Of a stretch of 64,000 nt of DNA, positions 6,516-61,225 are shown piece after piece. The position numbers and the translations under genes are program-made. The DNA comes from Bacillota bacterium. GTDB lineage: Bacteria > Bacillota > Limnochordia > DTU087. Where the stretch lies: NCBI GenBank assembly GCA_012518315.1, contig JAAYSL010000084.1, positions 20,336-84,335 on the forward strand, written 5' to 3'. Numbering within the stretch: the stretch's first letter is position 1; each line of letters opens with the position of its first letter. Under the pieces are notes generated by a model, which did no database searches, had not been told where the DNA came from, and worked only from the letters and a program-made list of their open reading frames with translations.

Positions 6516-9500
6516 TCATACCTGCTTTCCAGATAAAACCTCTATTCTAGCCGACGCCAAGCCGGAAGGAAGCGTTTTCCCTTCTAGCGTATTTGCGGAG
6601 GTGTTGGTAACTGCCAGAGTAACTGTATTACTGCTATCATGACATAGGTCCGAAACGTCAAACACATATGGCGCCCACAGGCGACAACCTGCTTCTTCCC
6701 CATTGACCCAAGCTTCCACCACTCCATCGTGGCCATCAGCTGTCAGCATGAGCCGTTTACCTTTCCAACTCCCGGGCAGATCAAAGGTCGTGCTATAGGT
6801 GCCCGTGCCAGAGTAAAAGGGGTAGCCGGAATCTGTCCAAGAACCCACGCCTAGCTTGGTTCTAGGAGCACCTAAACTGTAAGTGGCAGTCCCCGATTCC
6901 GTATTCGGTGAGGAGTCAGCCATACAGACACTAAAATCCCCCACCACCTTTAGCTTATCGACAATACCTCCCCATTCAGAGTCAACCTCTATTTTGACCG
7001 CCAGTTGATTCACTCCCTGGCGGACATATGCCTCCAATGGTACGGCAAGGATGTCACAATCCAAAGACGAAGCCTTGAGATTATCGCTGCTTACTAGGCT
7101 GCCATTGACATAGAGCTGGTATTTGCCCAGAAAACCATCGATAAGCATCTGGAGTCTATTGGGCAGATGCTGTAAATCTATCTTAGTGCGGTACCACAGA
7201 GTAGTTGGTGTAGGTACATCGCCTACATAGCTCCGGACGACTCTCATCCAGGGACCGTTGGTGGCCCAAACCCACTCCGTATCATCGAACTCCGGCAGAT
7301 GATATCCCTTGGATAAACCTTCTCCCTTAGGATCAATTCCTAGCCGCCAACTATCGATGAGCAACACATTATCTCCGCTCAGGGTGAAGTCCCATTCGCC
7401 CTTCAGATCGATGGGTGTCAAAACGTCGTTTGGCTTCGAGAATTCTGAGGACTCAATCTCCAGCTCCGGTTGTCCTGGTCTCACCATAAGAAAGATTGCC
7501 TGATGGGGCCACATATCTAGTTTAACCGTCATTTCGCTGGTGTCCAGGGCACTAACCACCCCATTCGCCGTCTCACCGGTTTCGGGGTTCCAGAGCTCCG
7601 GATGTCCAATCTTGCTTAGGGTGACCTGGATTGTTTTGTTATTGGCAGTAGTATTGACCAAAAAGTACAGGTCTAGATCGTCAGCTTGCCTGTGCAGGCA
7701 GAAAATATCCTGATCATCAATGTGCACTCTCCGATCGACTGCTGCGTCGAGCCCTTGAGCAAGCAGCTCTTCGGGATGGCTTTTACTAAGCCCGCCTGGG
7801 CTCTGCAAGAAACCCACATAGCCGCCTCCGGGGTGCGTTCCGGCATGCAATATAGCTCGATTGGCGCAGTCTTTTGAATCCCCCACTACTCCCGCCCCTT
7901 GGCTAATGACGGCAGCTGGACTTGCCTGTCCTAAATCAACGTTAAAGGTTTCTCGGACAAAATCCAGTACCTTAGGGTCACTAGCTACCACATCCGAATC
8001 CTCTGGTAGCATTGTGCAGGCTAGAAGACTGCCTCCCTCATCGAGAAACTCCTGCAGCTTATTTACTGTGTCCCTCTTTAGCATGCTCGTAGCAGGTAGG
8101 ATCAGAAGCGAATAACGATTTTGTCCTATAGACATAGCTCCATTTTCTACTATTGTCTCACTGATGGTGTCTTCGTCTATGTAATCAAAACCATAGTGGA
8201 GACGTAGTAGGGCATCAGTGAGATACGCTAGGTCAGATTCAATGATATCTGCCAAGGGGGTGCGTACCTGGGAAGTGTAGTTTTGCCAGTAGCTTCTTAC
8301 GGGATATAAAATCGCCATATCGGCCACAGGTCTACCGGTACTAAGAAGATAGCTTAAGCGGGAAATGTATTCGCTAAACTGCCCATAGTACTTCCACCAG
8401 GACTGCTGGTAGAACTGACAAGGTGGCCAATCTCGCTTCCTGTCCCCTTCAATACTATAATGTCCACCATGGGGGTTAAAGAGATTTACACCAAGGACGT
8501 ATTCCCAATCAGCCATGGTTTTCATATCCAGCATGGTGGTTGCCCACCCAAAACCACCGATGGATTCACACAGTACTCGTTTACTACCCACCTGGTGAGC
8601 AACAGAACTGGCTGCTTTGAGGGCTACATGCAGATCGGGCCTTTCCCTTGATCCCTTGGGGGAGAAAATATGGTCTACACCGACGATATCAAAGTGTTTG
8701 AGGTGGGTCATGACATTGCCTTCAGTGCGGGTTGCCAAATGGAACCATTCTTCAAACAGAAGATGACCTGTGAAAAGCAGATCATGATCATGACACCATT
8801 GCCTAACCCTCTCATAGAACACTGTGGACAGACGCTCTGTGAGCGTATTCCAGAAATCATATCTTACTATTCTTGAGTTGGTATCGACATCGTAGAACAG
8901 TGAGGCTAACCGTGACAAGAGATCATAGCCATTCTCAGTCTGAAAGAGCTCTCTCATCCCTTCTGTCCAGGGAATAAAGCCATTTTCCGGGTTAATCTGG
9001 TAATAGTGCATGGCTGGCTCGTCAGTATAGAACCCAGGGATGACATCACCAAAGTACTCCCCTACCCGCTTCGCATAGTGCTCATGGGTATATTCTATGA
9101 ACTTATCGACAGCCTTGGGGTTTAAAGCATCTATATACCATGGAGTCTGCTTCTCGATGAAGTGTAGTACTGCCCATTCACCCTCGGGAACCTCCCAAGC
9201 CATGATCATCGAGTCAAAGGAAATATATTGATTGAGATTAATCGCTCGGCTCCAGTTTTTCCTCCCGCTTTCAAGTGGTACTGCCCAGGCAGCAATAATC
9301 CTCCCACCATCAGTATCTAGATACCGAGCATCAGTTGTCTTGAGAAAGCTATAACGGGAGCCTATCTGATGGGTCTCGACTAGCTGTAAAAGTCGCTGGG
9401 TAAGCTCAGGGTGATCCTCACATACCTTAAGCCCAGCGGTCCCGCTAGGCCAATTATACTCATCGTAGATCCATAGCCTCATTCCGATTTTCTTAGCTTC

Positions 9501-9719
9501 CTTGCAGACTATCTCTATACAGTCAAACCATTCATCTGACAAATATGGCGTAATCAAACCATAGCGGCCATGGATATATATATCCGATATCTGCTTATCC
9601 CGAAACTCGTGTAACTGTCGAACCAATTCCTCTGGTCTGAGCCTAGAGTTCCACATCCAAAAGGGCTGAATGGAGTAATCCAGTGATGGTTGCTTGAATT
9701 CTGTCCCATGGAAAATCAC
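6516..9719 (-). CDS. large cytoplasmic glycoside-hydrolase-like protein (1067 aa; candidate GH106 alpha-L-rhamnosidase type, family assignment tentative)
   Basis: Uninterrupted 3.2-kb ORF. N-terminal PFWMWN...WIYDEYNWPSG motif block typical of a large glycosidase family, and a C-terminal galactose-binding-like beta-sandwich region. No signal peptide. Confidence 0.75.
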   Translation of the reverse strand: MIFHGTEFKQPSLDYSIQPFWMWNSRLRPEELVRQLHEFRDKQISDIYIHGRYGLITPYLSDEWFDCIEIVCKEAKKIGMRLWIYDEYNWPSGTAGLKVCEDHPELTQRLLQLVETHQIGSRYSFLKTTDARYLDTDGGRIIAAWAVPLESGRKNWSRAINLNQYISFDSMIMAWEVPEGEWAVLHFIEKQTPWYIDALNPKAVDKFIEYTHEHYAKRVGEYFGDVIPGFYTDEPAMHYYQINPENGFIPWTEGMRELFQTENGYDLLSRLASLFYDVDTNSRIVRYDFWNTLTERLSTVFYERVRQWCHDHDLLFTGHLLFEEWFHLATRTEGNVMTHLKHFDIVGVDHIFSPKGSRERPDLHVALKAASSVAHQVGSKRVLCESIGGFGWATTMLDMKTMADWEYVLGVNLFNPHGGHYSIEGDRKRDWPPCQFYQQSWWKYYGQFSEYISRLSYLLSTGRPVADMAILYPVRSYWQNYTSQVRTPLADIIESDLAYLTDALLRLHYGFDYIDEDTISETIVENGAMSIGQNRYSLLILPATSMLKRDTVNKLQEFLDEGGSLLACTMLPEDSDVVASDPKVLDFVRETFNVDLGQASPAAVISQGAGVVGDSKDCANRAILHAGTHPGGGYVGFLQSPGGLSKSHPEELLAQGLDAAVDRRVHIDDQDIFCLHRQADDLDLYFLVNTTANNKTIQVTLSKIGHPELWNPETGETANGVVSALDTSEMTVKLDMWPHQAIFLMVRPGQPELEIESSEFSKPNDVLTPIDLKGEWDFTLSGDNVLLIDSWRLGIDPKGEGLSKGYHLPEFDDTEWVWATNGPWMRVVRSYVGDVPTPTTLWYRTKIDLQHLPNRLQMLIDGFLGKYQLYVNGSLVSSDNLKASSLDCDILAVPLEAYVRQGVNQLAVKIEVDSEWGGIVDKLKVVGDFSVCMADSSPNTESGTATYSLGAPRTKLGVGSWTDSGYPFYSGTGTYSTTFDLPGSWKGKRLMLTADGHDGVVEAWVNGEEAGCRLWAPYVFDVSDLCHDSSNTVTLAVTNTSANTLEGKTLPSGLASARIEVLSGKQV

Positions 9720-14722: not shown

Positions 14723-15355
14723 TCATCTGGGGGTCTGGTAGGTACCACTTCCTGCCGGGCCCTTTTCATAATCGAGGATGTAAAAGCCATAGGCGTTTAT
14801 GACATACGTATCCCCCACCTTTGTCACCCGTTCTTGGTTACGGCCGTAATTCAGGTGAGTATGGCCATGAAAGAAATACTTGGGACTATGCTTCTCGATG
14901 ATCTGGTTAAAGACGGTGAACCCAGCATGGGTCACGTTCTCCATATCATGGATGCCCTTGGGTGGTGCATGGGTGATGACGATATCCACCCCCTTGTGGC
15001 GCCAGAGCCTGGGTCTCATCCACTGATAGGCCCAGTACATCTCCCGCTCGGTATATTGCACTGCCTCACGGGTATATACCTGACTACCCTCAAGGCCCAT
15101 AATCCGAATGCCTCTATAGGAAATGAGGCGGCCGTGAATATCCTCTCCCCCATCAGGTGGATCTTGGTCGAAAGACCGATCGTGGTTACCCCTGACATAG
15201 TAAAGGGGAGCATTAAAGGTAGACATCAAGTAAGACATATACCATTGCTTAAGATCACCACAGGCCAAAATCAGATCAATGGCGGGAAACCGCTCCGGCC
15301 GATAATAATCATAAAGCAAGGGATCGATATGATCGGCTACTACCAGCAAATGCAA
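14723..15355 (-). CDS. metallophosphoesterase (calcineurin-like)
   Basis: Motifs ACGDL, RGNHD, ITHAPP and GHTH. Confidence 0.8.
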   Translation of the reverse strand: MHLLVVADHIDPLLYDYYRPERFPAIDLILACGDLKQWYMSYLMSTFNAPLYYVRGNHDRSFDQDPPDGGEDIHGRLISYRGIRIMGLEGSQVYTREAVQYTEREMYWAYQWMRPRLWRHKGVDIVITHAPPKGIHDMENVTHAGFTVFNQIIEKHSPKYFFHGHTHLNYGRNQERVTKVGDTYVINAYGFYILDYEKGPAGSGTYQTPR

Positions 15356-15616
15356 GGCATACTCCCCTCCCTACCTTCTACCCTAGCACACCGGGCTACC
15401 CTGATCCTAGCTTAGGGATTAACCAAGTCAGGGATTGGAATTATGAGAACCAATTGCTCTGGGACTATGTCTCCCCTAGTATATCACACATGATCCCACT
15501 CACTCCACTCTAAGTGATGCCCTTCCTTGCTATACCTGCTATAGGTCGATGATGTCGTCAACGTTTATGGGTTCTTCGTTGCGGGACTACCACCAGATAA
15601 GAAAACTCAGGAAACC

Positions 15617-15634
15617 TTGACCTTCCCTGACCTT
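15617..15634 (-). promoter_or_regulatory. CtsR-like tandem heptad operator (over the -35)
   Basis: Reverse complement is AAGGTCAGGGAAGGTCAA, i.e. GGTCAGG-GAA-GGTCAAG versus consensus RGTCAAA-NAN-RGTCAAA. Confidence 0.4.
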
Positions 15635-15645
15635 GATGGTATAAT
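15617..15645 (+). promoter_or_regulatory. sigma-A-type promoter of hsp20 (TTGACC-17-TATAAT)
   Basis: Perfect -10 and near-perfect -35 with a 17-nt spacer, about 45 nt upstream of the hsp20 start. Confidence 0.6.
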
Positions 15646-15654
15646 CTAGTTGAA

Positions 15655-15671
15655 GGTCAATAAAGGTCAGA
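15655..15671 (+). promoter_or_regulatory. CtsR-like tandem heptad operator (downstream of -10)
   Basis: GGTCAAT-AAA-GGTCAGA matches 15/17 positions of the CtsR consensus GGTCAAANANGGTCAAA. Confidence 0.5.
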
Positions 15672-15691
15672 CTCTAAAGGGGGTTTTCTAG

Positions 15692-16132
15692 ATGGCTAAC
15701 CTAATACCATTTCGCCATCGTCGCATGCTGAGAAGTGATTGGAATCCATGGGATGATTTCATGCAGCTGGCCAACATGTTTGGGGACAGGGGTATGATGC
15801 CATCATTTAGCATGGCATATCCGGCTGTTGATGTAGAGGACACCCCTGAGGCTTATCTGGTGAAGGCCAATGTGCCTGGGTATGCCAAGGACGATTTGGA
15901 AATCGAGCTAGAAGGCAATATGGTTACAATTAAAGGTAACACCGTTGCCGAAGAGCAAACACAGTCCCAGGATCTCATCCATCAGGAGCGTTGCACGGGA
16001 GAATTCCGCAGAACCTTCGCTCTACCGACAGATATCGATGCTGAAAACGCGGAAGCGACCTTTGATCATGGTGTCCTAGAAATCCGCCTACCCAAAGCAC
16101 GTGGCAAGGGACGAAGATTGACGATCAACTAG
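15692..16132 (+). CDS. small heat-shock protein, Hsp20/alpha-crystallin family
   Basis: Alpha-crystallin domain (VDVEDTPEAYLVKANVPGYAKDDLEIELEGNMVTIKG...FDHGVLEIRLPK). RBS AAAGGGGG. Confidence 0.9.
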   Translation: MANLIPFRHRRMLRSDWNPWDDFMQLANMFGDRGMMPSFSMAYPAVDVEDTPEAYLVKANVPGYAKDDLEIELEGNMVTIKGNTVAEEQTQSQDLIHQERCTGEFRRTFALPTDIDAENAEATFDHGVLEIRLPKARGKGRRLTIN

Positions 16133-16177
16133 GTTGACTGATCTCTACGGAAGACAACTCCTGCCATTACAAGTAAT

Positions 16178-16228
16178 CGAGTAGGGTGGCGCAAGGGTTA
16201 TCACCTAGCGCCACCCTACTCGATTTTG
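16178..16228. terminator. bidirectional intrinsic terminator (15-bp perfect stem) between hsp20 and purD
   Basis: CGAGTAGGGTGGCGC-(15-nt loop)-GCGCCACCCTACTCG, followed by ATTTTGG. Confidence 0.7.
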
Positions 16229-16283
16229 GTCTACATATAGAATAGCTTTCTGAACCTCTTTAGTGCTCGCCAAGCGATATCTG

Positions 16284-17564
16284 TCAACTCTTCTCTAGCG
16301 CTCGCCAAGCGATATCTCGCCGATAATACATCCCCTGAAAACGAAGCCGCTCCATAGCTTGATACACTTTGTCTCTAGCCTCTTGTATGTCATCTCCCAA
16401 GGCAGATATGCCTACAACACGGCCACCAGCTGTGACGATTCGTCCATCACGCAAAGCCGTTCCTGCGTGAAAGGCATAGATGTCGGGCAAAGCGCCTACT
16501 GCCGCCTCCAGGCCATCAATGGGAAAACCCGTGGTGTAAGCCCCTGGATAGCCCCCAGATGCCGCTATGACGCAAACCGAGGCTCGGGGATCCCAGTCAA
16601 GTGAGCCAAAAGAGCTTAGCCGACCCTGGTTTGCGGCAACTAGTAGCTCCACTAGGTCAGTTCTCAGCCTTGGCAAGACCACTTGGGTTTCAGGATCACC
16701 AAAACGACAATTATACTCAATCACCTTTGGGCCGTCCTTTGTCAACATTAGTCCAGCATAGAGCACTCCAGTATATTGAATTCCTTCTTGGCGCAGGGCG
16801 TTTAGCGTCGGAATCAGGATTGAATCATGAATCTTCCGCTCTACAGCCTGGTTTATCACAGGTACTGGGCTATAGGCTCCCATCCCACCAGTATTGAGCC
16901 CTTTATCACCTTCACCAATTGCTTTATGATCCTGGCTAGGAGCTAACGGTATGCAGCTTACTCCATCACAGACTGCTAAGATAGAGACCTCTTGACCAGA
17001 CAAATACTCTTCCACAACAATCCGCCGTCCTGCCTCACCCACCTCGTCTCCGGAAAGGGTGGCTTCGGCAGCCGTAAGGGCAGTATCAATATCTTGTGCC
17101 ACGACTACTCCCTTACCTGCTGCCAATCCGTCGGCCTTGATGACAATGGGAGCTCCCACGTGCTGGATATAGGCTTTGGCACTGGGAAAATCGGTGAAGA
17201 CCTCATAAGCCGCAGTCGGTATAGCGTATTTCTTCATTAGTTCTTTAGCAAAAACTTTGCTGCTTTCGATTTGGGCAGCTTTTTGTGTAGGACCGAAAAT
17301 CGCAAGGCCACGGGCACGAAAAACGTCGACTATACCGGCTGCTAAGTAGTCTTCTGGCCCTACAACAGTCAGGTTAATCCCCTTAGCTGAAGCAAACTCT
17401 GCTAATGTGTTAGGCTCGGCGGAGGCAAGATTGGGTATGCTAGCTTTCTGGGCAATCCCGGCATTCCCTGGAAAGCACCAGATGGCATCTACTTTGGGGC
17501 TTTCAGATAGCTTCTGCACCAAAGCGTGTTCCCTGCCGCCACCACCGATAACTAGTACTCGCAT
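16284..17564 (-). CDS. purD: phosphoribosylamine--glycine ligase
   Basis: MRVLVIGGGGREHAL start preceded by GGGGG, with ATP-grasp motifs. The longer ORF extends to 17591. Confidence 0.9.
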   Translation of the reverse strand: MRVLVIGGGGREHALVQKLSESPKVDAIWCFPGNAGIAQKASIPNLASAEPNTLAEFASAKGINLTVVGPEDYLAAGIVDVFRARGLAIFGPTQKAAQIESSKVFAKELMKKYAIPTAAYEVFTDFPSAKAYIQHVGAPIVIKADGLAAGKGVVVAQDIDTALTAAEATLSGDEVGEAGRRIVVEEYLSGQEVSILAVCDGVSCIPLAPSQDHKAIGEGDKGLNTGGMGAYSPVPVINQAVERKIHDSILIPTLNALRQEGIQYTGVLYAGLMLTKDGPKVIEYNCRFGDPETQVVLPRLRTDLVELLVAANQGRLSSFGSLDWDPRASVCVIAASGGYPGAYTTGFPIDGLEAAVGALPDIYAFHAGTALRDGRIVTAGGRVVGISALGDDIQEARDKVYQAMERLRFQGMYYRRDIAWRALEKS

Positions 17565-19310: not shown

Positions 19311-20714
19311 TTAGTTCGCACCGATTGGATACTCACCGGTGAAACAAGCAAGACACAGCTCATCTTTGGGTATTCCGAGAGCTCGAACTAACCCCTCGAC
19401 TGAAATATAGTGCAGAGAATCGGCCTCAATAAGCCTTCTTAGTTCTTCAAGGGTGCGACCTCGGGCAACTAGCTCACTCTTTGATGAAGGTTCAATTCCG
19501 TAGAGACAAGGATACCGATAAGGGGGTGACGCAACGTACATATGAACTTCCCGGGCACCGGCCTCCCTTAGCAAAGCTATAAGTTTGCCAGAAGTTGTCC
19601 CTCGGACGATGGAATCATCCACCACTGCTACCCGTTTTCCCTGGAGCACATCTACCACGGGGTTCAGCTTAATGCGAACAGCCAGCTGACGCCCGGCTTG
19701 AGTAGGCTGCAAGAAAGTCCGCCCCACATAGCGGTTCTTAATCACACCAATTTCAAAAGGCAAGCCCGTGGCTTCGGCAAAACCCAAAGCAGGCGACACG
19801 CCCGAGTCAGGGGCACCAATCACAACATCAGCCCGAGCCATAGTCTCTCTAGCCAGCTCCTGACCAATTGCTTTACGGACAAGGTAGGCATTTTTCCCAC
19901 CTATACAGCTATCCGGACGGGCGAAGTAAATATGCTCGAAGGCACAAAGTGCTTGCTTCTCACTGGGCTTTAGGCTATAAGTATGATAACCTGCTACATC
20001 CAAGGCCACCAGTTCTCCTGGCTTCACCTCCCGGAGAAACTCACCACCCAAATTGGCGATCGCGCAAGACTCTGAGGCTACCATGTAGCCTTCACCCAGC
20101 TTGCCAAGACACAATGGACGATTACCCCAAGGATCCTTGGCAGCCAAGAGCATATCCTCACTTAGAATCACCAAGGCATAGGCTCCCCGGATGAGTTCCA
20201 AGGTTTTGGCTACTGCTGCCGGTAAGTCATTCTCGCCACTTTGGGCAATCAAGTTAAGGATAACTTCCGAGTCTGTATTGGTCTGAAGCACAGTACCCCT
20301 CTCCAGAAGCTGTTGCCTGAGTTCTCTGCCGTTAACGAGACTCCCATTCTGGGCAATCGCTAAGCTGCCAAATGACGAGCGCACCCAAAGTGGTTGGGTA
20401 TTAATCACGTGTCTATCCGCCTCGGTGGATAGACGTACATGGCCAATCCCAGCAAAACCCGGCAGCTCATTCAAAGAATCCTGATCAAACACTTCAGGCA
20501 CTAAGCCTGGACCTTTACCAAGCCACATCTTGTTCCCATCAAAAGTAACTATCCCGGCACTCTCTTGCCCTCGATGCTGTAGGGCATAAAGCCCAAGATA
20601 ACACAGGGACGCAGCCGGTACGCTGGTATCTTTACCCCAAATCCCCACAACACCACAGGCTTCCTGTGGCTTGCCGAGACTATGATTAGTCGCCCTCACG
20701 GCTCCATCTGGCAT
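19311..20714 (-). CDS. purF: amidophosphoribosyltransferase
   Basis: CGVVGIWG Ntn start, PRTase motif and C-terminal Cys ligands. ATG 20714 lies just after the purL stop; the longer ORF (to 21011) overlaps purL. Confidence 0.9.
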   Translation of the reverse strand: MPDGAVRATNHSLGKPQEACGVVGIWGKDTSVPAASLCYLGLYALQHRGQESAGIVTFDGNKMWLGKGPGLVPEVFDQDSLNELPGFAGIGHVRLSTEADRHVINTQPLWVRSSFGSLAIAQNGSLVNGRELRQQLLERGTVLQTNTDSEVILNLIAQSGENDLPAAVAKTLELIRGAYALVILSEDMLLAAKDPWGNRPLCLGKLGEGYMVASESCAIANLGGEFLREVKPGELVALDVAGYHTYSLKPSEKQALCAFEHIYFARPDSCIGGKNAYLVRKAIGQELARETMARADVVIGAPDSGVSPALGFAEATGLPFEIGVIKNRYVGRTFLQPTQAGRQLAVRIKLNPVVDVLQGKRVAVVDDSIVRGTTSGKLIALLREAGAREVHMYVASPPYRYPCLYGIEPSSKSELVARGRTLEELRRLIEADSLHYISVEGLVRALGIPKDELCLACFTGEYPIGAN

Positions 20715-22939
20715 TTGATTGCCCCCCGCCAGGTGCTCTTTAGCTCTTGTACTGACAGATTTACGCAGATCTCTTCTGTATTGTTCTTGCCATCTACCAA
20801 CTGGGTAATTCGCAGGCTTCCAGCCTCCACTTGGCCAATCACACTTAGAGGAACACCTTGCTCTTTTGCCAACTGCTGCAATCGCTGTAGCTTTTCCGAG
20901 GGAAGTGAAACAACTATCCGGCTGTGACTCTCCCCATAGAGTAATGCCGCCTTCGATATGACACTCTCTTTTAGGGTAACCTTGGCTCCCAGCTCCCCTA
21001 AGATACAGCACTCTGCCAAAGCTACGGCCAAGCCGCCTTCACTGCAATCATGAGCCGAGCTAACTAATCCTTCTTTGATGGCCGCAAGGCATAGATCCTG
21101 TACCTTTTTCTCCAAGGCCAGATCAAGTTTTGGTGGGCAGCCAGTTACAAGACCGTGCACTACCTGCAAATATTCACTACCTCCCAATTCCCCTAGGTTT
21201 TCTCCCAAAAGGACGATGGTATCCCCCACTTGTTTGAAGCCTTGAGTGCAGATATGGGCTCGATCTTCGATTAGGCCCACCATACCAATAACAGGAGTAG
21301 GATAGATAGCCTTGCCATTGCTTTCGTTGTAGAAGGATACATTGCCGCCGATGACAGGTGTGTCAAGCATGTGACAGGCCTCAGCAATTCCATCAATAGT
21401 CTGGGAGAATTGCCAGTAGATCTCGGGTTTTTCTGGATTACCGAAATTGAGTCCATCGGTTACCGCAAGAGGTTTCGCCCCACTACAAACAAGATTCCTC
21501 GCAGCTTCAGCCACAGCTGCCGCGGCACCCGAGGCAGGATCAAGATAGCAAAGCCGGGCATTACAGTCTACACTTAAGCCAATAGCTTTATTGGTGCCCG
21601 TAATCCCAATGATCCCAGCTCCTGTAAGGCCTGGTGGTACCAAGGCGTTGCCACCGGCAGAATAGTCATATTGCTGAAAAACCCATTCCTTGCTGGCGAT
21701 ATTTGGAGAAGCGAGAAGTTGGAGTAGAGTTTGATTATGGTCCTCTGGTTCTGGCAGACTAGCAGGTTCAAACTGGGAGATTTCGTCTAGATAGTCTGGG
21801 CGCCGTGAGTTGGGATGGTAAATTGGGGCACTCGCTAGGGCTTGGGCAGGCACTTCAGCCAGCACCTTGCCACTAGATGTGAGGCGCAAAAGGCCGTCAT
21901 CAGTAACTCTGCCAACTGTAGCGATAGGTACATCCCAGCGATTAAAGATAGCTTCAATGGCAGCTTCACATCCTGCCTTGACAACAAAGAGCATGCGTTC
22001 TTGGGTTTCCGAAAGCATGATCTCATAGGGAGTCATGTCCGGCTCACCCACCGGGATTAGATCCATATCTAGCTCGATACCGTGTTGTCCTCTAGCCGCC
22101 ATCTCCGCGGCAGAACTAGTTAGACCCGCAGCACCCATATCCTGAATACCCACTAGATGGCCTGACTTGATAGCTTCTAGACAAGCTTCGATTAGTCGCT
22201 TGCCCATCTCGGGATAGCCTTTCGGTATAGCAGAGCGCCGCTCTTGGGACTCTTCCGTCAGTTCACCTGAGGCAAAGGCGGCACCTTCGATACCATCCCT
22301 GCCAGTAGGGGTGCCGGCCGCCATGACCGGGTTACCTGCCCCAGTGGCTATACCTTTGGCGATGGGATCATCCTTGTCAAGCAGTCCTACTGCCATAGCA
22401 TTTACTAGGCAATTACCGCTGTAGGAATCATCAAAGTAGATCTCTCCGGCGATCATAGGGACTTCCACTGTATTGCCATATCCCGCCATACCAGCCACCG
22501 CACCTTCTAGGAGCCATCGTTGATGCGGATCAGCTAGATTGCCAAACCTCAGTGAGTTCAGACCGGCCACTGGCCTGGCGCCCATGGTGAAGATATCTCT
22601 TAAGATCCCGCCCACTCCTGTGGCGGCTCCTGCATAGGGCTCAATCGCAGATGGGTGATTGTGGCTCTCGATTTTGAAAACTACCGCTTGTCCATCATGA
22701 ATATCGACAATACCCGCATTTTCACCAGGCCCTTGCAGTACATGACTACCTTCGGTTGGCAGCCGCCCGAGTAAAGCCCGGGAATACTTGTACCCACAGT
22801 GTTCTGACCACATCACGGAGAATAGAGCTAATTCCAGTTCATTTGGTGTACGATCCATGTGTTTTTCGATCTGCTGATACTCCTCGGCTGTAAGCCCCAT
22901 CTCTTCCCAGATGTTGCGCTTTTGCTTTTCCGATACCAC
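20696..22939 (-). CDS. purL: phosphoribosylformylglycinamidine synthase subunit PurL (small type, 747 aa)
   Basis: Two AIRS-like repeats (MWSEHCGYK..., GIQDMGAAGL...). Confidence 0.9.
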   Translation of the reverse strand: MVSEKQKRNIWEEMGLTAEEYQQIEKHMDRTPNELELALFSVMWSEHCGYKYSRALLGRLPTEGSHVLQGPGENAGIVDIHDGQAVVFKIESHNHPSAIEPYAGAATGVGGILRDIFTMGARPVAGLNSLRFGNLADPHQRWLLEGAVAGMAGYGNTVEVPMIAGEIYFDDSYSGNCLVNAMAVGLLDKDDPIAKGIATGAGNPVMAAGTPTGRDGIEGAAFASGELTEESQERRSAIPKGYPEMGKRLIEACLEAIKSGHLVGIQDMGAAGLTSSAAEMAARGQHGIELDMDLIPVGEPDMTPYEIMLSETQERMLFVVKAGCEAAIEAIFNRWDVPIATVGRVTDDGLLRLTSSGKVLAEVPAQALASAPIYHPNSRRPDYLDEISQFEPASLPEPEDHNQTLLQLLASPNIASKEWVFQQYDYSAGGNALVPPGLTGAGIIGITGTNKAIGLSVDCNARLCYLDPASGAAAAVAEAARNLVCSGAKPLAVTDGLNFGNPEKPEIYWQFSQTIDGIAEACHMLDTPVIGGNVSFYNESNGKAIYPTPVIGMVGLIEDRAHICTQGFKQVGDTIVLLGENLGELGGSEYLQVVHGLVTGCPPKLDLALEKKVQDLCLAAIKEGLVSSAHDCSEGGLAVALAECCILGELGAKVTLKESVISKAALLYGESHSRIVVSLPSEKLQRLQQLAKEQGVPLSVIGQVEAGSLRITQLVDGKNNTEEICVNLSVQELKSTWRGAIKCQMEP

Positions 22940-23043: not shown

Positions 23044-23076
23044 GGTAGGTTACACTTATGCTATGTGAAACCTACC
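23044..23076. other. 12-bp stem hairpin in the purE-purL gap (possible internal terminator or attenuator)
   Basis: GGTAGGTTACAC-(9 nt)-GTGAAACCTACC, with one mismatch. T-rich flank on the minus strand (CUUUGCUUUC). Confidence 0.3.
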
Positions 23077-23264
23077 CGCCCAGGCTTTTATCCTTCTAGG
23101 GTGTAGCACTGTTACATGAACAGTGCCTGCACCACTTGGTCCAGACCCGCCTATAGGCGACGGAACCCTAGGTGCACTTTCAGCTAAGAAATCTTATTTA
23201 CTTGTCTGTCGGTTATCTATGTCAATTATAGCAGGGGTATGGTATGAGTGCAACTTCTAAACCC

Positions 23265-23819
23265 TTACTTGCCAGCCTCTTTCGCCCTAGCTAAGTAGCC
23301 ATGGTATCCTAATTTCTGAAGCTTAGTGTTTTTATCTAGTACTCCCTTTGCTTGCTCCTTACGATACGCTTCTAGTTTATGGTACCAAACAGGATCGGCC
23401 AAACCTAAGAGCTCCACCGCCAACAAGGCTGCGTTTTTACCGGCACCAATTCCGACTGTTGCCACAGGTATGCCTGGCGGCATTTGCACCATGGCATAAA
23501 GGGCATCTATGCCCCGTAGTTCACCACTAGCAATAGGTACCCCAATCACCGGCAAGGTGGTATACGCTGCCAAAACCCCAGGTAAGTGGGCGGCCATTCC
23601 GGCAGCCGCGATAATCACCTTCAGGCCTCGCTCCCTGGCGGTGGCGGCGTAGTTGGCTGCCTCAGTTGGAGTTCGATGGGCCGACAGAATCTGAACCTCG
23701 AACGGCACATCCCACTTCTCCAGTATCTCTAGACCAGGTGTGAGCACAGGTAGATCGCTATCACTACCCAGCACTACCCCGACTACGGGGGATTTTCCAG
23801 GCACTGCCTGCATATCCAT
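23265..23819 (-). CDS. purE: N5-carboxyaminoimidazole ribonucleotide mutase
   Basis: VVGVVLGSDSDLPV...IIAAAGMAAHLPGV, the PurE fold signature. Confidence 0.9.
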   Translation of the reverse strand: MDMQAVPGKSPVVGVVLGSDSDLPVLTPGLEILEKWDVPFEVQILSAHRTPTEAANYAATARERGLKVIIAAAGMAAHLPGVLAAYTTLPVIGVPIASGELRGIDALYAMVQMPPGIPVATVGIGAGKNAALLAVELLGLADPVWYHKLEAYRKEQAKGVLDKNTKLQKLGYHGYLARAKEAGK

Positions 23820-24677: not shown

Positions 24678-25472
24678 CTAAGAAGAAATCGCTGTCCTTA
24701 GATCAGCGAGGGTTCTGCGTTCTAGCCGGGACACGTGCATCTGAGAGATGCCCAGCATCTCCCCCACCATACTCTGGGAAAGACCTTCTACATAGCGAAG
24801 GTAAAGGATTTGACGCTGCCTAGGTTCAAGGCCAGCCATCATATCTTTGAGTAGCAAGCGGTTCTCCACCGTGTCATAGTCACCATCGGTATCACCCAGG
24901 AAGTCTTCCAGCACCATCTCATCCCCATTGGTTTCCTGATGAAAGGATGCAGATATCCGATTTGGCCCAGCCTCTGAAGCCTCAATTAGCTTTTCTTCTT
25001 CCACATTTAGCCACTGACTAATATCCTTCAAAGTGGGGTTTCTTCCCAATTTATTGGATAAGTAAGCCCGGGCTTCCTCCATCTGGTAGTACAACTGCTT
25101 GGCTTCCCGACCGATTTTCACACTCCAGGTACTGTCTCTAAGATAACGTTTGATCTCGCCAACAATAGTTGGTGTCGCATAGGTGACGAATTGAACATTA
25201 TGGCTACTGTCAAATCGCTTGAGAGCTTTCGTAAGACCAATGCCTCCGACCTGGATGAGATCTTCCCGCAACTCCGGATCTTTCGTGAACTTGTTTGCCA
25301 GATACTCCACCAGTTCCCAATGGGCTTGTACCAAGACTTCCAGCAATTCCGGTGATTGGTGTTTCTCATAGGACATGAGATACTCCGTCACCAGTTGTTT
25401 GTCCCTTCTGTACGAGAGATTCCTGTGGGAGACCATTTCCAATGCCAACATTCTATCCCTCCTCGGTGCCAA
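24678..25472 (-). CDS. RNA polymerase sigma factor, group 3 (SigB/SigF/SigG-like)
   Basis: Region 2 (DLIQVGGIGLTKALKRFD...PTIVGEIKRYLRDSTWSVKI) and region 4 (GISQMHVSRLERR), closely resembling SigB-type sigma factors. Confidence 0.8.
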   Translation of the reverse strand: MAPRRDRMLALEMVSHRNLSYRRDKQLVTEYLMSYEKHQSPELLEVLVQAHWELVEYLANKFTKDPELREDLIQVGGIGLTKALKRFDSSHNVQFVTYATPTIVGEIKRYLRDSTWSVKIGREAKQLYYQMEEARAYLSNKLGRNPTLKDISQWLNVEEEKLIEASEAGPNRISASFHQETNGDEMVLEDFLGDTDGDYDTVENRLLLKDMMAGLEPRQRQILYLRYVEGLSQSMVGEMLGISQMHVSRLERRTLADLRTAISS

Positions 25473-46842: not shown

Positions 46843-47886
46843 TCAGACTACATTTCTCTCCCACCACTCGTCTGTACTACTTAGAGTCAATGCTCCTGCT
46901 ACCCGCTGGACTGCCTTAATCATCTGACCGAATTGCCGGGGAGTCAGGGATTGCGCACCATCAGACAAGGCAGTATCTGGATTTGGGTGTACTTCCACCA
47001 TGAGGCCTTGGGCCCCAGCGGCGACAGCTGCACACCCAGCTGGGGTCACCAATTCACTTCTCCCGGTGGCATGGCTGGGATCAGCAATCACCGGTAAGTG
47101 GCTCAGTCGTCTCGCCAAGGCGATAGCCCCCACATCTAGAGTATTGCGGGTAGCTGTCTCAAAGGTACGAATACCTCTTTCACAAAGAATGACCTGGTAG
47201 TTGCCTTCGGATAAGATGTATTCGGCTGCCATCAGCCATTCTTCAATGGTAGCCGAAAGCCCTCGCTTGAGTAGCACCGGTTTGCGAGAATGCCCCACTT
47301 GCCTGAGTAAGGAGAAGTTTTGCATATTGCGAGCCCCAATCTGTAGAATATCTACGTACCGGGCGACCAATTCTACATCAGAAGGGTTGATTACCTCAGA
47401 AACAGTGGGCATACCAAAGGTCTCCCCTGCTTCTTGGAGATATTCTAGACCCCTTTCACCTAGCCCCTGGAAGCTATATGGTGATGTACGGGGTTTGAAG
47501 GCACCACCCCGCAAAATCGAGGCACCGGCGATTTTTACTTGTTCGGCTGTTTCTAGAATCTGCTCTCTACTCTCAATGGCACAAGGGCCTGCCATATAGA
47601 CCATCTTGCCATCACCAATGGTCACGTTTTTGATCTGGATAATGCTATCTTCGGCCTTGGCATCACGACTAGTAAGTTTGTACGGGGCCATGATGGGAAC
47701 AGCTTTTTCCACTCCGGGCAATCCCTCAAAAAAGCTAGGTTCCAGTCCATTCTTGTCTCCGACAAGTCCGATGACTGTTCTGGCCACCCCAACAATTACG
47801 TGGGGTTCTAGCCCATAGTGCTTGATCCGGGCGACAATATCCTGTAGTTCGGTCTCACTTGCCTCTTTTTGTAGGACAATAATCAT
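46843..47886 (-). CDS. aroG: 3-deoxy-7-phosphoheptulonate (DAHP) synthase, type I-beta with N-terminal regulatory domain
   Basis: N-terminal ferredoxin-like/ACT-like domain, then the KDO8PS/DAHPS barrel (GPCAIESREQ..., KPRTSPYSFQGLG, ADPSHATG). RBS TAGGAGG. Confidence 0.9.
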   Translation of the reverse strand: MIIVLQKEASETELQDIVARIKHYGLEPHVIVGVARTVIGLVGDKNGLEPSFFEGLPGVEKAVPIMAPYKLTSRDAKAEDSIIQIKNVTIGDGKMVYMAGPCAIESREQILETAEQVKIAGASILRGGAFKPRTSPYSFQGLGERGLEYLQEAGETFGMPTVSEVINPSDVELVARYVDILQIGARNMQNFSLLRQVGHSRKPVLLKRGLSATIEEWLMAAEYILSEGNYQVILCERGIRTFETATRNTLDVGAIALARRLSHLPVIADPSHATGRSELVTPAGCAAVAAGAQGLMVEVHPNPDTALSDGAQSLTPRQFGQMIKAVQRVAGALTLSSTDEWWERNVV

Positions 47887-47911: not shown

Positions 47912-48220
47912 AACAAAACCCCTCATCCGATAAGGGACGAGGGGTTACTCGCGGTACCACCCTATTTGTGTGACGCAAAATCACACCACTTTAATCAGAC
48001 ACCTTTATCTATGAGCATAAAGCTACAGACAGTCGAGGCCTGCTTCCTTATAACGGTGGAAGTCTCCGTTGTTGCCTACTTCAAGTTCAGCAACACGGCT
48101 CCGGGGAGAACTTCACCTCTACCTTACGTACCGGCTTACACCTAACCCGGCTCTCTAGAACGTTTCAGCAGAACTACTTTTCCCCTTCATTGCCTTTTTA
48201 CAGACTGCTTGCATATGTTA
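47912..48220 (-). ncRNA. T-box riboswitch leader upstream of aroG
   Basis: Minus-strand leader contains the T-box core AAUAGGGUGGUACCGCGAG (plus coordinates 47948-47967), immediately followed by a terminator hairpin AACCCCUCGUCCC-UUAUC-GGAUGAGGGGUUUUGUUAUU (47912-47946). Stem I shows a K-turn/GA motif with AGUA box (GGCAAUGAAGGGGAAAAGUAG), an AG bulge (CUAGAGAGCC) and a distal loop (GGUGUAAGCC). Length about 310 nt. Confidence 0.85.
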
Positions 48221-55248: not shown

Positions 55249-56535
55249 CTATTTCGCCTCCCCAAAGGCTATGTTGCCACCAACGATGGTGACGACCGGC
55301 CATCCAAACAACTGCTCACCAGCGAAAGGCGTGTTGCTCGAGCGGCTAAAGAATGTTTTGGGGTCAACTGTTTTCGCCAATGCCTCATCCATAATGACAA
55401 TATCCGCTCGATTGCCTACAGCTAGACCATGATCAGTGAGTCCCAAAAGCTTTGCCGGTTGATACGACATTCTCTCCCACAGGGTAGCAAGTTCGAGAAG
55501 ACCTGGCTTTACTAAATGAGTATACAAGAGGGGCAAGGCGGTCTCTAGGCCAATGAGGCCAAACTCGGCTTGCATGTAGTCACAATCTTTTTCCTCCCAC
55601 GTGTGGGGCGCATGGTCAGTAGCGATGCAGTCGATCACCCCGGAAGTTAAGGCTTTCCGCAGTGCCTCCACATGTTCCTTGCTCCTTAGGGGAGGATTGA
55701 CCTTGGTATTTGTATCGAAGCTTTGCACTGCCTCATCAGTGAGAACCAGATGGTGAGGAGTCACTTCACAGCTTACCTTGATGCCCCTAGCCTTGGCAGC
55801 TGTGATTAGCTCGATACTCTCCTTGGTGGATACATGGGCAATATGCACCCACGAATTCGTAGCTTTGGCTAGCAATAAATCCCTTGCCACCATCACCGAT
55901 TCGGCCTCTGCTGGAATACCTGGCAGACCTAGAATGGTGGAGATAAATCCTTCATGCATCACACCTTTTCCCATGAGCCTAGGGTCTTCGGCGTGGCTGA
56001 TTACCGGTATACCAAAGGGGCGGCTGTACTCAAGGGCACGGCGCATGATTTCACCATCGACTATAGGGTCGCCATCGTCACTTATACCCCAAACACCAGC
56101 CTCGACCAATTCTCCGATCTCGGCTAGCTCCTGGCCCTTCCGCCCTTTGGTCACACAACCTACGGGAATCACCCTGACACTAGCTTCCTTAGCTTTTAGT
56201 AGAATAGCACTAATAGTAGCACCAGAGTCTATGGGTGGGGTAGTATTGGGCATGCAAACAATGGTGGTAAATCCCCCAGCTGCAGCTGCTTTCGCACCGG
56301 TAGCAATTGTCTCTTTATCTTCTCTTCCTGGCTCCCGAAGGTGTACATGGGTATCGATTAGTCCGGGGCCCACGATCTTGTCGGTGGCATCAATTATTAT
56401 GTCCCCTGCTTGTGGCTGAATGTCTCTGCCTATAGAGACAATACGGGAACCTTCAATCCTAAGACTGCCTGCTGTCAGGTGATGGCCATCAGTATCCTTG
56501 AGCAGCAGCTTGCCTTGTTTAATCAAGATCGACAC
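55249..56535 (-). CDS. pyrC: dihydroorotase
   Basis: Amidohydrolase motifs (DTHVHLREPG, ...ATDHAPH). Confidence 0.9.
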   Translation of the reverse strand: MSILIKQGKLLLKDTDGHHLTAGSLRIEGSRIVSIGRDIQPQAGDIIIDATDKIVGPGLIDTHVHLREPGREDKETIATGAKAAAAGGFTTIVCMPNTTPPIDSGATISAILLKAKEASVRVIPVGCVTKGRKGQELAEIGELVEAGVWGISDDGDPIVDGEIMRRALEYSRPFGIPVISHAEDPRLMGKGVMHEGFISTILGLPGIPAEAESVMVARDLLLAKATNSWVHIAHVSTKESIELITAAKARGIKVSCEVTPHHLVLTDEAVQSFDTNTKVNPPLRSKEHVEALRKALTSGVIDCIATDHAPHTWEEKDCDYMQAEFGLIGLETALPLLYTHLVKPGLLELATLWERMSYQPAKLLGLTDHGLAVGNRADIVIMDEALAKTVDPKTFFSRSSNTPFAGEQLFGWPVVTIVGGNIAFGEAK

Positions 56536-57463
56536 TTTGACGCCCTCCCCCTATCAGGTGGTAAAGTACTGCCATACGTACTGCTACACCATTAGTCACC
56601 TGTTCCTGGATGGAGGATGCTTTGCTATAGGCAACTTCTGTGGTTATCTCTACCCCAAGATTCGCAGGTCCCGGATGCATCACCACTACCTCCGGTTTCG
56701 TGCGCTCCATTCGGGCGGCATTCAAGCCGAAAAGGCGACTATATTCCCTTAGTGAAGGGAAAAGCCCCTCCTCTTGCCTTTCTCGTTGGATGCGCAGTAC
56801 ATAGATCAGGTCCGCTGTCTCAAGCTTAGCATCATCTAGGCTTTCTGCTACTTCTACACCTAGCTTCTCCAAACCCGGTGGGATTAGGGTGGCGGGCCCA
56901 CACACCGTCACTTTGGCTCCCAACCGCCGAAGGCCATAGATATTAGATTTGGCAACTCGACTATGGCGGATGTCCCCGATGATCAAAGCGTCTTTATCTT
57001 GGAAGGAATCCCAGCGCTCCTTTAGTGTGAGGAGATCAAGTAGTGCCTGAGTGGGATGCTCATGGGCTCCATCACCGGCATTGATTACTGCAGGCCGCAA
57101 GCAGCGGGCCAGATATTGGGGAGTGCCTGCGACGGAATGCCGCAAGACAATGGCATCGACACCCATGGCTTCCAGGGTTTTGGCCGTATCCTTTAGGCTC
57201 TCACCTTTAACCACACTACTATTGGATACTGAAACATTAATCACATCGGCACTGAGCCATTTGCCTGCAATCTCAAAAGAGCTACGGGTGCGGGTACTAG
57301 GCTCATAGAACAAGTTGACTACCGTCTTGCCCCTTAAAGTAGGGAATTTCTTCACACTTCGCTGAAAAACGCCCTTAAAGGACAAGGCAGAACGCAGCAG
57401 GGTTTCGGTTTCTTCTGCTGAGAGATCTGCAAGACCAAGCAGGTCTTTCCGTTGCCATGCCAT
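56519..57463 (-). CDS. pyrB: aspartate carbamoyltransferase catalytic subunit
   Basis: STRTR carbamoyl-phosphate binding motif and HPGP motif (VVMHPGP). Confidence 0.9.
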   Translation of the reverse strand: MAWQRKDLLGLADLSAEETETLLRSALSFKGVFQRSVKKFPTLRGKTVVNLFYEPSTRTRSSFEIAGKWLSADVINVSVSNSSVVKGESLKDTAKTLEAMGVDAIVLRHSVAGTPQYLARCLRPAVINAGDGAHEHPTQALLDLLTLKERWDSFQDKDALIIGDIRHSRVAKSNIYGLRRLGAKVTVCGPATLIPPGLEKLGVEVAESLDDAKLETADLIYVLRIQRERQEEGLFPSLREYSRLFGLNAARMERTKPEVVVMHPGPANLGVEITTEVAYSKASSIQEQVTNGVAVRMAVLYHLIGGGRQSVDLD

Positions 57464-57520
57464 GACTTCACCTCCGCGTTAATGAACCTCGCCCCCTTGC
57501 CCGTTTACCGATACTACCCA

Positions 57521-57552
57521 TAAAAAAAACCCTGCCATCCGGCAGGGCATGC
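57521..57552 (-). terminator. intrinsic terminator of the pyr leader attenuator (also terminates the upstream oxidoreductase gene)
   Basis: Minus strand: GCAUGCCCUGCC-GGAU-GGCAGGGU followed by UUUUUUUU, about 60 nt upstream of the pyrB ATG. Confidence 0.75.
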
Positions 57553-57613
57553 ATCTTCAATATAGCTTACAACAAGCTCCGGTGAATTGGCTACACCGGT
57601 AGTTGTCCCCTTG

Positions 57614-57631
57614 CTGACCTCGCCGGATCAT
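57614..57631 (-). promoter_or_regulatory. PyrR-binding loop candidate (anti-antiterminator) in pyrB leader
   Basis: Minus-strand RNA GAUCCGGCGAGGUC fits ARUCCNGNGAGGYU at 12/14 positions. It sits in the loop of a UUCCCUU/AAGGGGA stem upstream of the terminator. Confidence 0.5.
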
Positions 57632-57740
57632 CTTAAAGGGAAGCGAGTTTCTTTCGCTTATCGTACCAGTCGCTAGCTAGGTTGTCAATAGGTCAGCACG
57701 TCATTTCACCTAGCCAACGTCATTTTCTCTGGCCACCGTT

Positions 57741-61149: not shown

Positions 61150-61225
61150 AGGGGAGTAGCTCAATTGGCAGAGCACCGGTCTCCAAAACCGGGGGCTGCG
61201 GGTTCGATTCCTGTCTCCCCTGCCA
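61150..61225 (+). tRNA. trnW: tRNA-Trp (anticodon CCA)
   Basis: Manual cloverleaf: acceptor AGGGGAG/CUCCCCU, D-stem GCUC/GAGC, anticodon stem CCGGU/ACCGG with loop CUCCAAA, T-loop UUCGAUU, discriminator G, encoded CCA. 76 nt. Confidence 0.9.

Follow-up and report, generated by a model that had tools for sequence, protein, structure and literature searches.

The 64-kb stretch of DNA analysed in this study (the window) carries a small heat-shock gene, hsp20, whose promoter is bracketed by two tandem heptad repeats resembling the operators of CtsR, a regulator of the Firmicutes. The question raised by this locus is whether hsp20 is under class III (CtsR) heat-shock control, as the initial annotation had proposed, or whether class I control by HrcA and CIRCE, class II control by SigB, or some other mechanism describes it better. 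To answer it, the gene and its promoter were first characterized within the window, and the upstream region was then compared with those of relatives and with promoters of the same layout in metagenomes.

The hsp20 coding sequence (15692-16132, plus strand) encodes a small heat-shock protein of 146 amino acids with an Hsp20/alpha-crystallin domain (Pfam HSP20, PF00011; E = 1.8e-21, 76.6 bits against a cut-off of 20.8). The top NCBIfam model is Hsp18_Clos (NF042420), but with 81.8 bits the protein falls far short of the equivalog cut-off of 195 and is a relative of, rather than an orthologue within, that family. The ribosome-binding site AAAGGGGG (15676-15683, plus strand) is located 8 nt 5' of the ATG, and AGGAGG is found at the same place in the relatives. 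Downstream of the gene, an intrinsic terminator was detected by folding (16175-16229, plus strand), in which TTTT comes directly after a G+C-rich stem of 18 bp. The region 16130-16240 folds with -46.4 kcal/mol (z = -6.3), and none of 200 shuffled sequences was equally stable. Given this terminator hairpin with its T-run, and given that the next gene on the 3' side, purD, is convergent, hsp20 is monocistronic. Its 5' neighbour is a divergent metallophosphoesterase gene (14723-15355), which leaves hsp20 without a linked regulator gene.

Between positions 15000 and 16600, the promoter scan revealed a single promoter-like site, namely that of hsp20 at 15617-15645 on the plus strand. Its -35 hexamer TTGACC (15617-15622), which is unchanged across the upstream alignment of syntenic orthologues, is separated by 17 nt from the TATAAT hexamer (15640-15645). 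A TG at 15637-15638 makes the latter an extended -10 element, TG-G-TATAAT (15637-15645). The hexamers and the spacer are as initially annotated; the description of the promoter as perfect has to be corrected to near-consensus, since TTGACC in place of TTGACA results in 11 of 12 matches to the sigma-70-type consensus.

Both repeats were identified by direct reading of the sequence, by pattern match and by conservation. Operator A, GGTCAGG-GAA-GGTCAAG, lies over the -35 box on the minus strand (15616-15632; plus-strand reading CTTGACC-TTC-CCTGACC), or approximately -37 to -21 as counted from the predicted start. One of its heptads has the core GGTCAA, the reverse complement of which is the -35 hexamer TTGACC. 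Operator B, GGTCAAT-AAA-GGTCAGA, is situated downstream of the -10 box on the plus strand (15655-15671), at approximately +4 to +20 if transcription starts, as predicted, some 7 nt past the -10 box, near position 15652. A minus-strand match at 15630-15607 that appeared terminator-like is not a terminator and reflects pairing of operator A with upstream sequence.

CtsR operators follow the consensus A/GGTCAAA-NAN-A/GGTCAAA and overlap either the -35/-10 boxes or the transcription start (PMC12634643). The two sites at the hsp20 promoter are likewise tandem direct repeats of A/GGTCAAA-type heptads with the 3-nt NAN spacing. Operator A matches 12 of the 15 specified positions of RGTCAAA-NAN-RGTCAAA (three mismatches) and operator B 13 of 15 (two mismatches), and they cover the -35 box and the predicted start region, respectively, of a sigma-A promoter. 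Together they form an inverted repeat with 17-nt arms that are 82% complementary and 18 nt apart. The core pattern RGTCARNNANRGTCAR occurs twice in the 64-kb window, both times at the hsp20 promoter, compared to 0.10 matches expected from dinucleotide shuffles. A search for CIRCE (TTAGCACTC-N9-GAGTGCTAA, ≤3 mismatches) gave no match in the whole window, and the hsp20 promoter thus lacks the hallmark of class I control. In these respects the initial annotation was borne out: it had described two CtsR-type tandem heptads around the promoter, both fitting the CtsR consensus and together forming a long inverted repeat, and the absence of a CIRCE/HrcA element.

Syntenic orthologues were picked by protein identity alone (88%, 71%, and 70%), and their upstream regions were then aligned. 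The shared gene order is metallophosphoesterase / hsp20 / purD-purN-purM-purF-purL-purE. Operator A reads CTTGACCTTyCCTGACCTT in these orthologues and varies only at the y position, and operator B reads AAGGTCAAnrAAGGTCArA with variation only at n and r, reaching up to 14-15 of the 15 specified CtsR consensus positions in the relatives. The spacer around the -10 box and the leader vary, the leader being unconserved except for operator B. Across the relatives, metagenome loci included, a -10 box can be recognised but varies (TATAAT, TATAGT, TACAAT, TAAGAT, or TATGAT), and approximately 90 nt of the window's upstream sequence are deleted in the 70-71% relatives. All 14 fetched loci (1.4-20 kb) contain exactly two motif matches each, both at hsp20.

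A more distant relative retains only one of the two sites. On the AT-rich contig L091, which encodes an Hsp20 with 61% identity, TTGACCTTTCCTGACCTTAATGGTATAAT matches operator A and the promoter at nearly every base, and operator B is absent (positions 1-300), the leader being A/T-rich. Operator A is hence the constant element, and operator B is common but dispensable. From this locus it seems that either the promoter module is transferred together with the gene or a single operator suffices.

A further box in the upstream region, at 15476-15488 (CTAGTATATCACA), is nearly unchanged in all upstream alignments, L008 having a C in place of one T. Its minus-strand sequence (TGATATACT) is an extended -10 element about 130 nt from operator A, with which it does not overlap. 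This element probably drives the divergent metallophosphoesterase gene.

The purine biosynthesis genes on the other side of hsp20 contain a regulatory element of their own. Between purE (23265-23819) and purL (20696-22939), a match to the Rfam family Guanidine-I (ykkC) was found within the operon at 23075-23182 on the minus strand (72 bits, gathering score 63). Subtype 2 variants of ykkC sense PRPP or ppGpp and are located 5' of purine genes, and the ykkC-type element of the window may thus be no guanidine sensor but a PRPP-type riboswitch.

In addition to the orthologues, a metagenome collection was scanned for the two-box layout without regard to the gene downstream, using TTGACC-N5-TGACC-N18-30-GGTCA-N5-GGTCA, for which about four chance matches were estimated. 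Among the 67 loci returned, eight have hsp20 directly downstream of the layout (tblastn, Pfam). Three (L028, L044, and L057) lie within the clade or at its fringe, and the Hsp20 of L057 is 58% identical. The other five are located on contigs of higher GC content, with Hsp20 identities of 33% (L073, contig GC 0.60) and 35-45% (L049, L075, L066, and L070, contig GC 0.62-0.65). A recognisable -10 element lies between the boxes in all eight loci, and the box-to-box gap is 22-25 nt. In the high-GC relatives, the spacer of operator A is ATT, which breaks the NAN rule. Across 11 hsp20 promoters, mean pairwise identity amounts to 0.84 and 0.87 in the operators compared to 0.31-0.32 in the flanks. As the metagenome loci were chosen by the pattern, the operator figures are inflated, and it is the loci selected by protein that carry real weight. 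No clp or ctsR gene was found downstream of the layout in any of the 67 loci.

In five other loci from the scan (L031, L032, L043, L048, and L089; metagenome contigs, GC 0.62-0.65), tandem TTGACCAAGC repeats are arranged as inverted pairs. The small ORFs directly 3' of these repeats start with M..INLYEAKT.LS.LVERAAAGEEIVI and look like Phd/YefM-type antitoxins. Their promoters have the same two-by-two operator layout as hsp20, in an unrelated autoregulated system. It follows that tandem GGTCA repeats with a periodicity of 10 bp are not unique to CtsR. The remaining loci, neither hsp20 nor antitoxin, are eukaryote-like repeats or noise.

Since CtsR belongs to the Firmicutes, the identity of the host bears on the question. 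At least 23 metagenome contigs, most of them of biogas-reactor origin, encode the identical Hsp20 protein. A scan of the genome collection with the Hsp20 alignment yielded AS23ysBPME_95 and AS23ysBPME_266 as the only related species representatives, the rest belonging to distant phyla. Both are biogas MAGs that were placed by their authors no lower than the phylum Firmicutes; AS23ysBPME_95 (GCA_012798695.1) has a size of 2.7 Mb and 50% GC (PMC7038595). The CarB protein encoded in the window is 74-81% identical to its counterparts inside the clade, falling to 61% outside, and the named organisms nearest at that level are Desulfovirgula, Desulfofundulus, Thermincola, Moorella, and Effusibacillus. 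Judged from these identities, the host is a deep, uncultured Firmicutes clade.

The regulator gene was searched for at several levels. Pfam analysis of the approximately 38 ORFs of the window gave no ctsR (PF05848/PF17727), mcsA/B, or clp gene, and neither ctsR nor another class III gene was found within 7-10 kb beyond either window end. When CtsR, ClpP, ClpC, and McsB were compared by tblastn with all 90 fetched loci, only ClpC was detected, in an unrelated Chloroflexi contig. The ClpC-like gene in question (L022, 5138-7519) is 48% identical to Bacillus ClpC and lies about 2 kb from an hsp20 homologue, on a MAG contig fetched by the Hsp20 scan. In a protein search for CtsR among 8000 candidates, for which a Bacillus-type query was used (82-89% identical to real sequences), the best 120 of 7998 matches were all from Bacillaceae. 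The presence of CtsR in the host lineage is assumed from taxonomy; it is likely but, as the clade is deep, not certain.

The best explanation, which we regard as quite likely, is that the monocistronic hsp20 gene with its sigma-A-type promoter is repressed by CtsR at two operators and that this repression is relieved by heat. One CtsR dimer on the tandem heptads over the -35 box would block binding of RNA polymerase, and a second dimer on the tandem heptads just past the start site would block initiation or promoter escape. Upon heat shock, CtsR would release the DNA, and the near-consensus hsp20 promoter would then fire. In Bacillus, heat release of CtsR proceeds through a thermosensing glycine-rich loop, followed by arginine phosphorylation by McsB and degradation by Clp. 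With regard to the class III control proposed in the initial annotation, the assignment of the cis-elements holds, on the basis of consensus fit, position over the -35 box and start, phylogenetic footprinting, and lack of CIRCE; that CtsR is the protein binding there, that it represses when bound, and that heat relieves this repression is inferred.

A variant of this mechanism, which we consider rather unlikely, is that the paired dimers act as one clamp or loop enclosing the promoter, or that a non-CtsR protein of the clade reads the CtsR-like boxes. The idea of a clamp or loop is based on the arrangement of the operators, which flank the -10 box, are always inverted, and have their centres spaced by 39-42 bp. 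If true, a clamp or a non-CtsR reader would be a variation on the mechanism restricted to hsp18-type genes in a group of uncultured Firmicutes with a GC content of 0.3-0.65.

In a rival explanation, the boxes would be real operators recognised by a repressor other than CtsR, which could be specific to the clade and read either the tandem AAGGTCA units or the whole 17-nt inverted repeat. We keep this explanation as a rival because the antitoxin promoters, with very similar inverted pairs on high-GC contigs, indicate that tandem GGTCA repeats can serve other repressors, yet we judge it improbable. The failure to find ctsR in the lineage DNA examined (window, 7-10 kb flanks, and fetched loci) and the deep branching of the clade are in its favour, as is the ATT spacer of operator A in the high-GC hsp20 loci. 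However, each site is a 7+3 bp direct repeat that matches 12-15 of the 15 CtsR consensus positions, and the target is a heat-shock gene of a kind that has been connected with CtsR before. None of the loci examined has a regulator gene linked to hsp20, and retention of the motif at host GC contents from approximately 0.3 to 0.65 fits a regulator with a specificity fixed across the phylum. Recognition of the long inverted repeat as a single unit is further contradicted by L091, which possesses only one arm. CtsR thus remains the preferred candidate for the protein bound at the two operators.

Heat induction might additionally or alternatively originate from an upstream SigB-type promoter or from an RNA thermometer in the leader, with the heptads playing a secondary role, which appears very unlikely. 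The hexamers GTTTAT-N14-GGGACT at 15563-15588, about 65 nt 5' of the sigma-A promoter, resemble a sigma-B promoter, and a sigma factor gene of the SigB/SigF/SigG family lies 9 kb away. Class II control was defined by a conserved promoter of the type GTTTAA-N12-15-GGGTAT. The match at 15563-15588 is weak, its hexamers are not kept even in the 88% relative (L013/L014 compared), and the whole segment is missing from the 70-71% relatives; the hexamers are probably due to chance, and the promoter that looks functional is of the sigma-A type. An RNA thermometer (ROSE, fourU, or Hsp17-type) would be in line with the pairing of part of the ribosome-binding site in the minimum-energy fold of the leader. 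However, this leader folds no better than shuffled sequences (z = -0.38) and is unconserved outside operator B, and no Rfam family, thermometers included, was detected in 15400-16300 (E up to 1).

That the repeats are functionless chance copies of a TTGACC -35-like hexamer and its complement is hardly credible: the complementarity of GGTCAA and TTGACC provides one heptad core for free with the -35 box, but a chance origin of the two sites is excluded by statistics and conservation, as two full tandem sites occur within 55 bp where 0.10 are expected per 64 kb, the operators are near-invariant while the flanks have diverged to about 31% identity, and the sites recur 5' of distantly related hsp20 genes in the gene-blind scan.

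The sigma factor encoded in the window (24678-25472, minus strand) is an orphan that scores 245.6 bits against the NCBIfam SigB/SigF/SigG subfamily cut-off of 234.35. SigB is its top-scoring equivalog model, yet the score is under the cut-off of that model. The gene is located between a patatin-like and a uridine-kinase-domain gene, an arrangement kept in relatives, and no rsbV/rsbW or spoIIAA/AB partner is visible beside it. Other regulatory elements in the window include a T-box leader (47930-48199, minus strand, 150.9 bits) 5' of a DAHP synthase gene (46843-47886) and a PyrR binding site (57520-57643, minus strand) 5' of a pyrB-like gene (56519-57463), the latter with 54.5 bits just at the gathering score. 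One tRNA gene was found at 61150-61222 (plus strand). A gene for a GH106 alpha-L-rhamnosidase-like protein of 1067 amino acids (6516-9719, minus strand) lies between a XerC-type integrase gene and a DUF2229/BcrAD-BadFG cluster. It is missing from the same position in the 70% relative (L007/L008) and hence looks like a species-specific insertion beside an integrase gene.

The architecture of the hsp20 promoter can be compared with several known systems. The clpE, clpP, and clpC genes of B. subtilis similarly have sigma-A promoters with CtsR heptads over the -35/-10 boxes or the start; clpE has five CtsR operators, and CtsR binding is cooperative (PMC12634643). In contrast to the small heat-shock gene of the window, these targets encode Clp ATPase or protease components. 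Closer in function is hsp18 (Lo18) of Oenococcus oeni, for which repression by CtsR, and induction upon thermal inactivation of CtsR, were demonstrated with an hsp18'-bgaB fusion (PMC6305308). Like the gene of the window, which has CtsR-type sites, it is an Hsp20-family gene with a CtsR operator and without CIRCE, but it belongs to a lactic acid bacterium devoid of HrcA. The promoter of the window has two inverted operators, and its host is an uncultured Firmicute nearest to Desulfotomaculum/Moorella-type groups.

In Clostridium acetobutylicum, CtsR sites upstream of hsp18 (CAC3714), a gene that is independent of HrcA, were predicted by phylogenetic footprinting; the ctsR-yacH-yacI-clpC operon has the same sites (PMC3828012), and the hsp18 orthologues of C. 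beijerinckii and C. botulinum are marked as site carriers (PMC3828012 supplement). The gene of the window resembles hsp18 in its upstream CtsR-type sites, and its product scores best on the clostridial Hsp18 model, although at 81.8 bits against 195 it is a relative only. A CtsR box is also present at the small heat-shock gene hsp1 (lp_0129) of Lactobacillus plantarum, which is derepressed in a ctsR mutant (PMC3842655). Unlike the promoter of the window, hsp1 also contains CIRCE and is under the additional control of HrcA. In view of the evidence from O. oeni and L. plantarum and the prediction for C. acetobutylicum, the initial annotation overstated its case in presenting CtsR control of a small heat-shock protein as unusual.

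The hsp20 promoter is thus very probably a case of a known mechanism acting on a known target class in a new, uncultured clade, and our understanding of class III heat-shock control is unchanged. Three aspects appear mildly new at the sequence level: the conserved inverted layout of two operators, its recurrence with hsp18-type genes in genomes of approximately 30% to 65% GC, and the persistence of the -35 operator alone in one relative (L091). With this finding, the regulation of a heat-shock gene can be annotated confidently in an uncultured Firmicutes clade frequent in biogas reactors, and it extends the predicted link between CtsR and small heat-shock proteins past lactic acid bacteria and Clostridium. 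In practical terms, the locus offers a compact promoter cassette that is probably inducible by heat, and a marker with which the CtsR regulon of this clade can be reconstructed from complete genomes. It further shows a promoter-plus-operator module travelling with hsp18-type genes across very different genomes.
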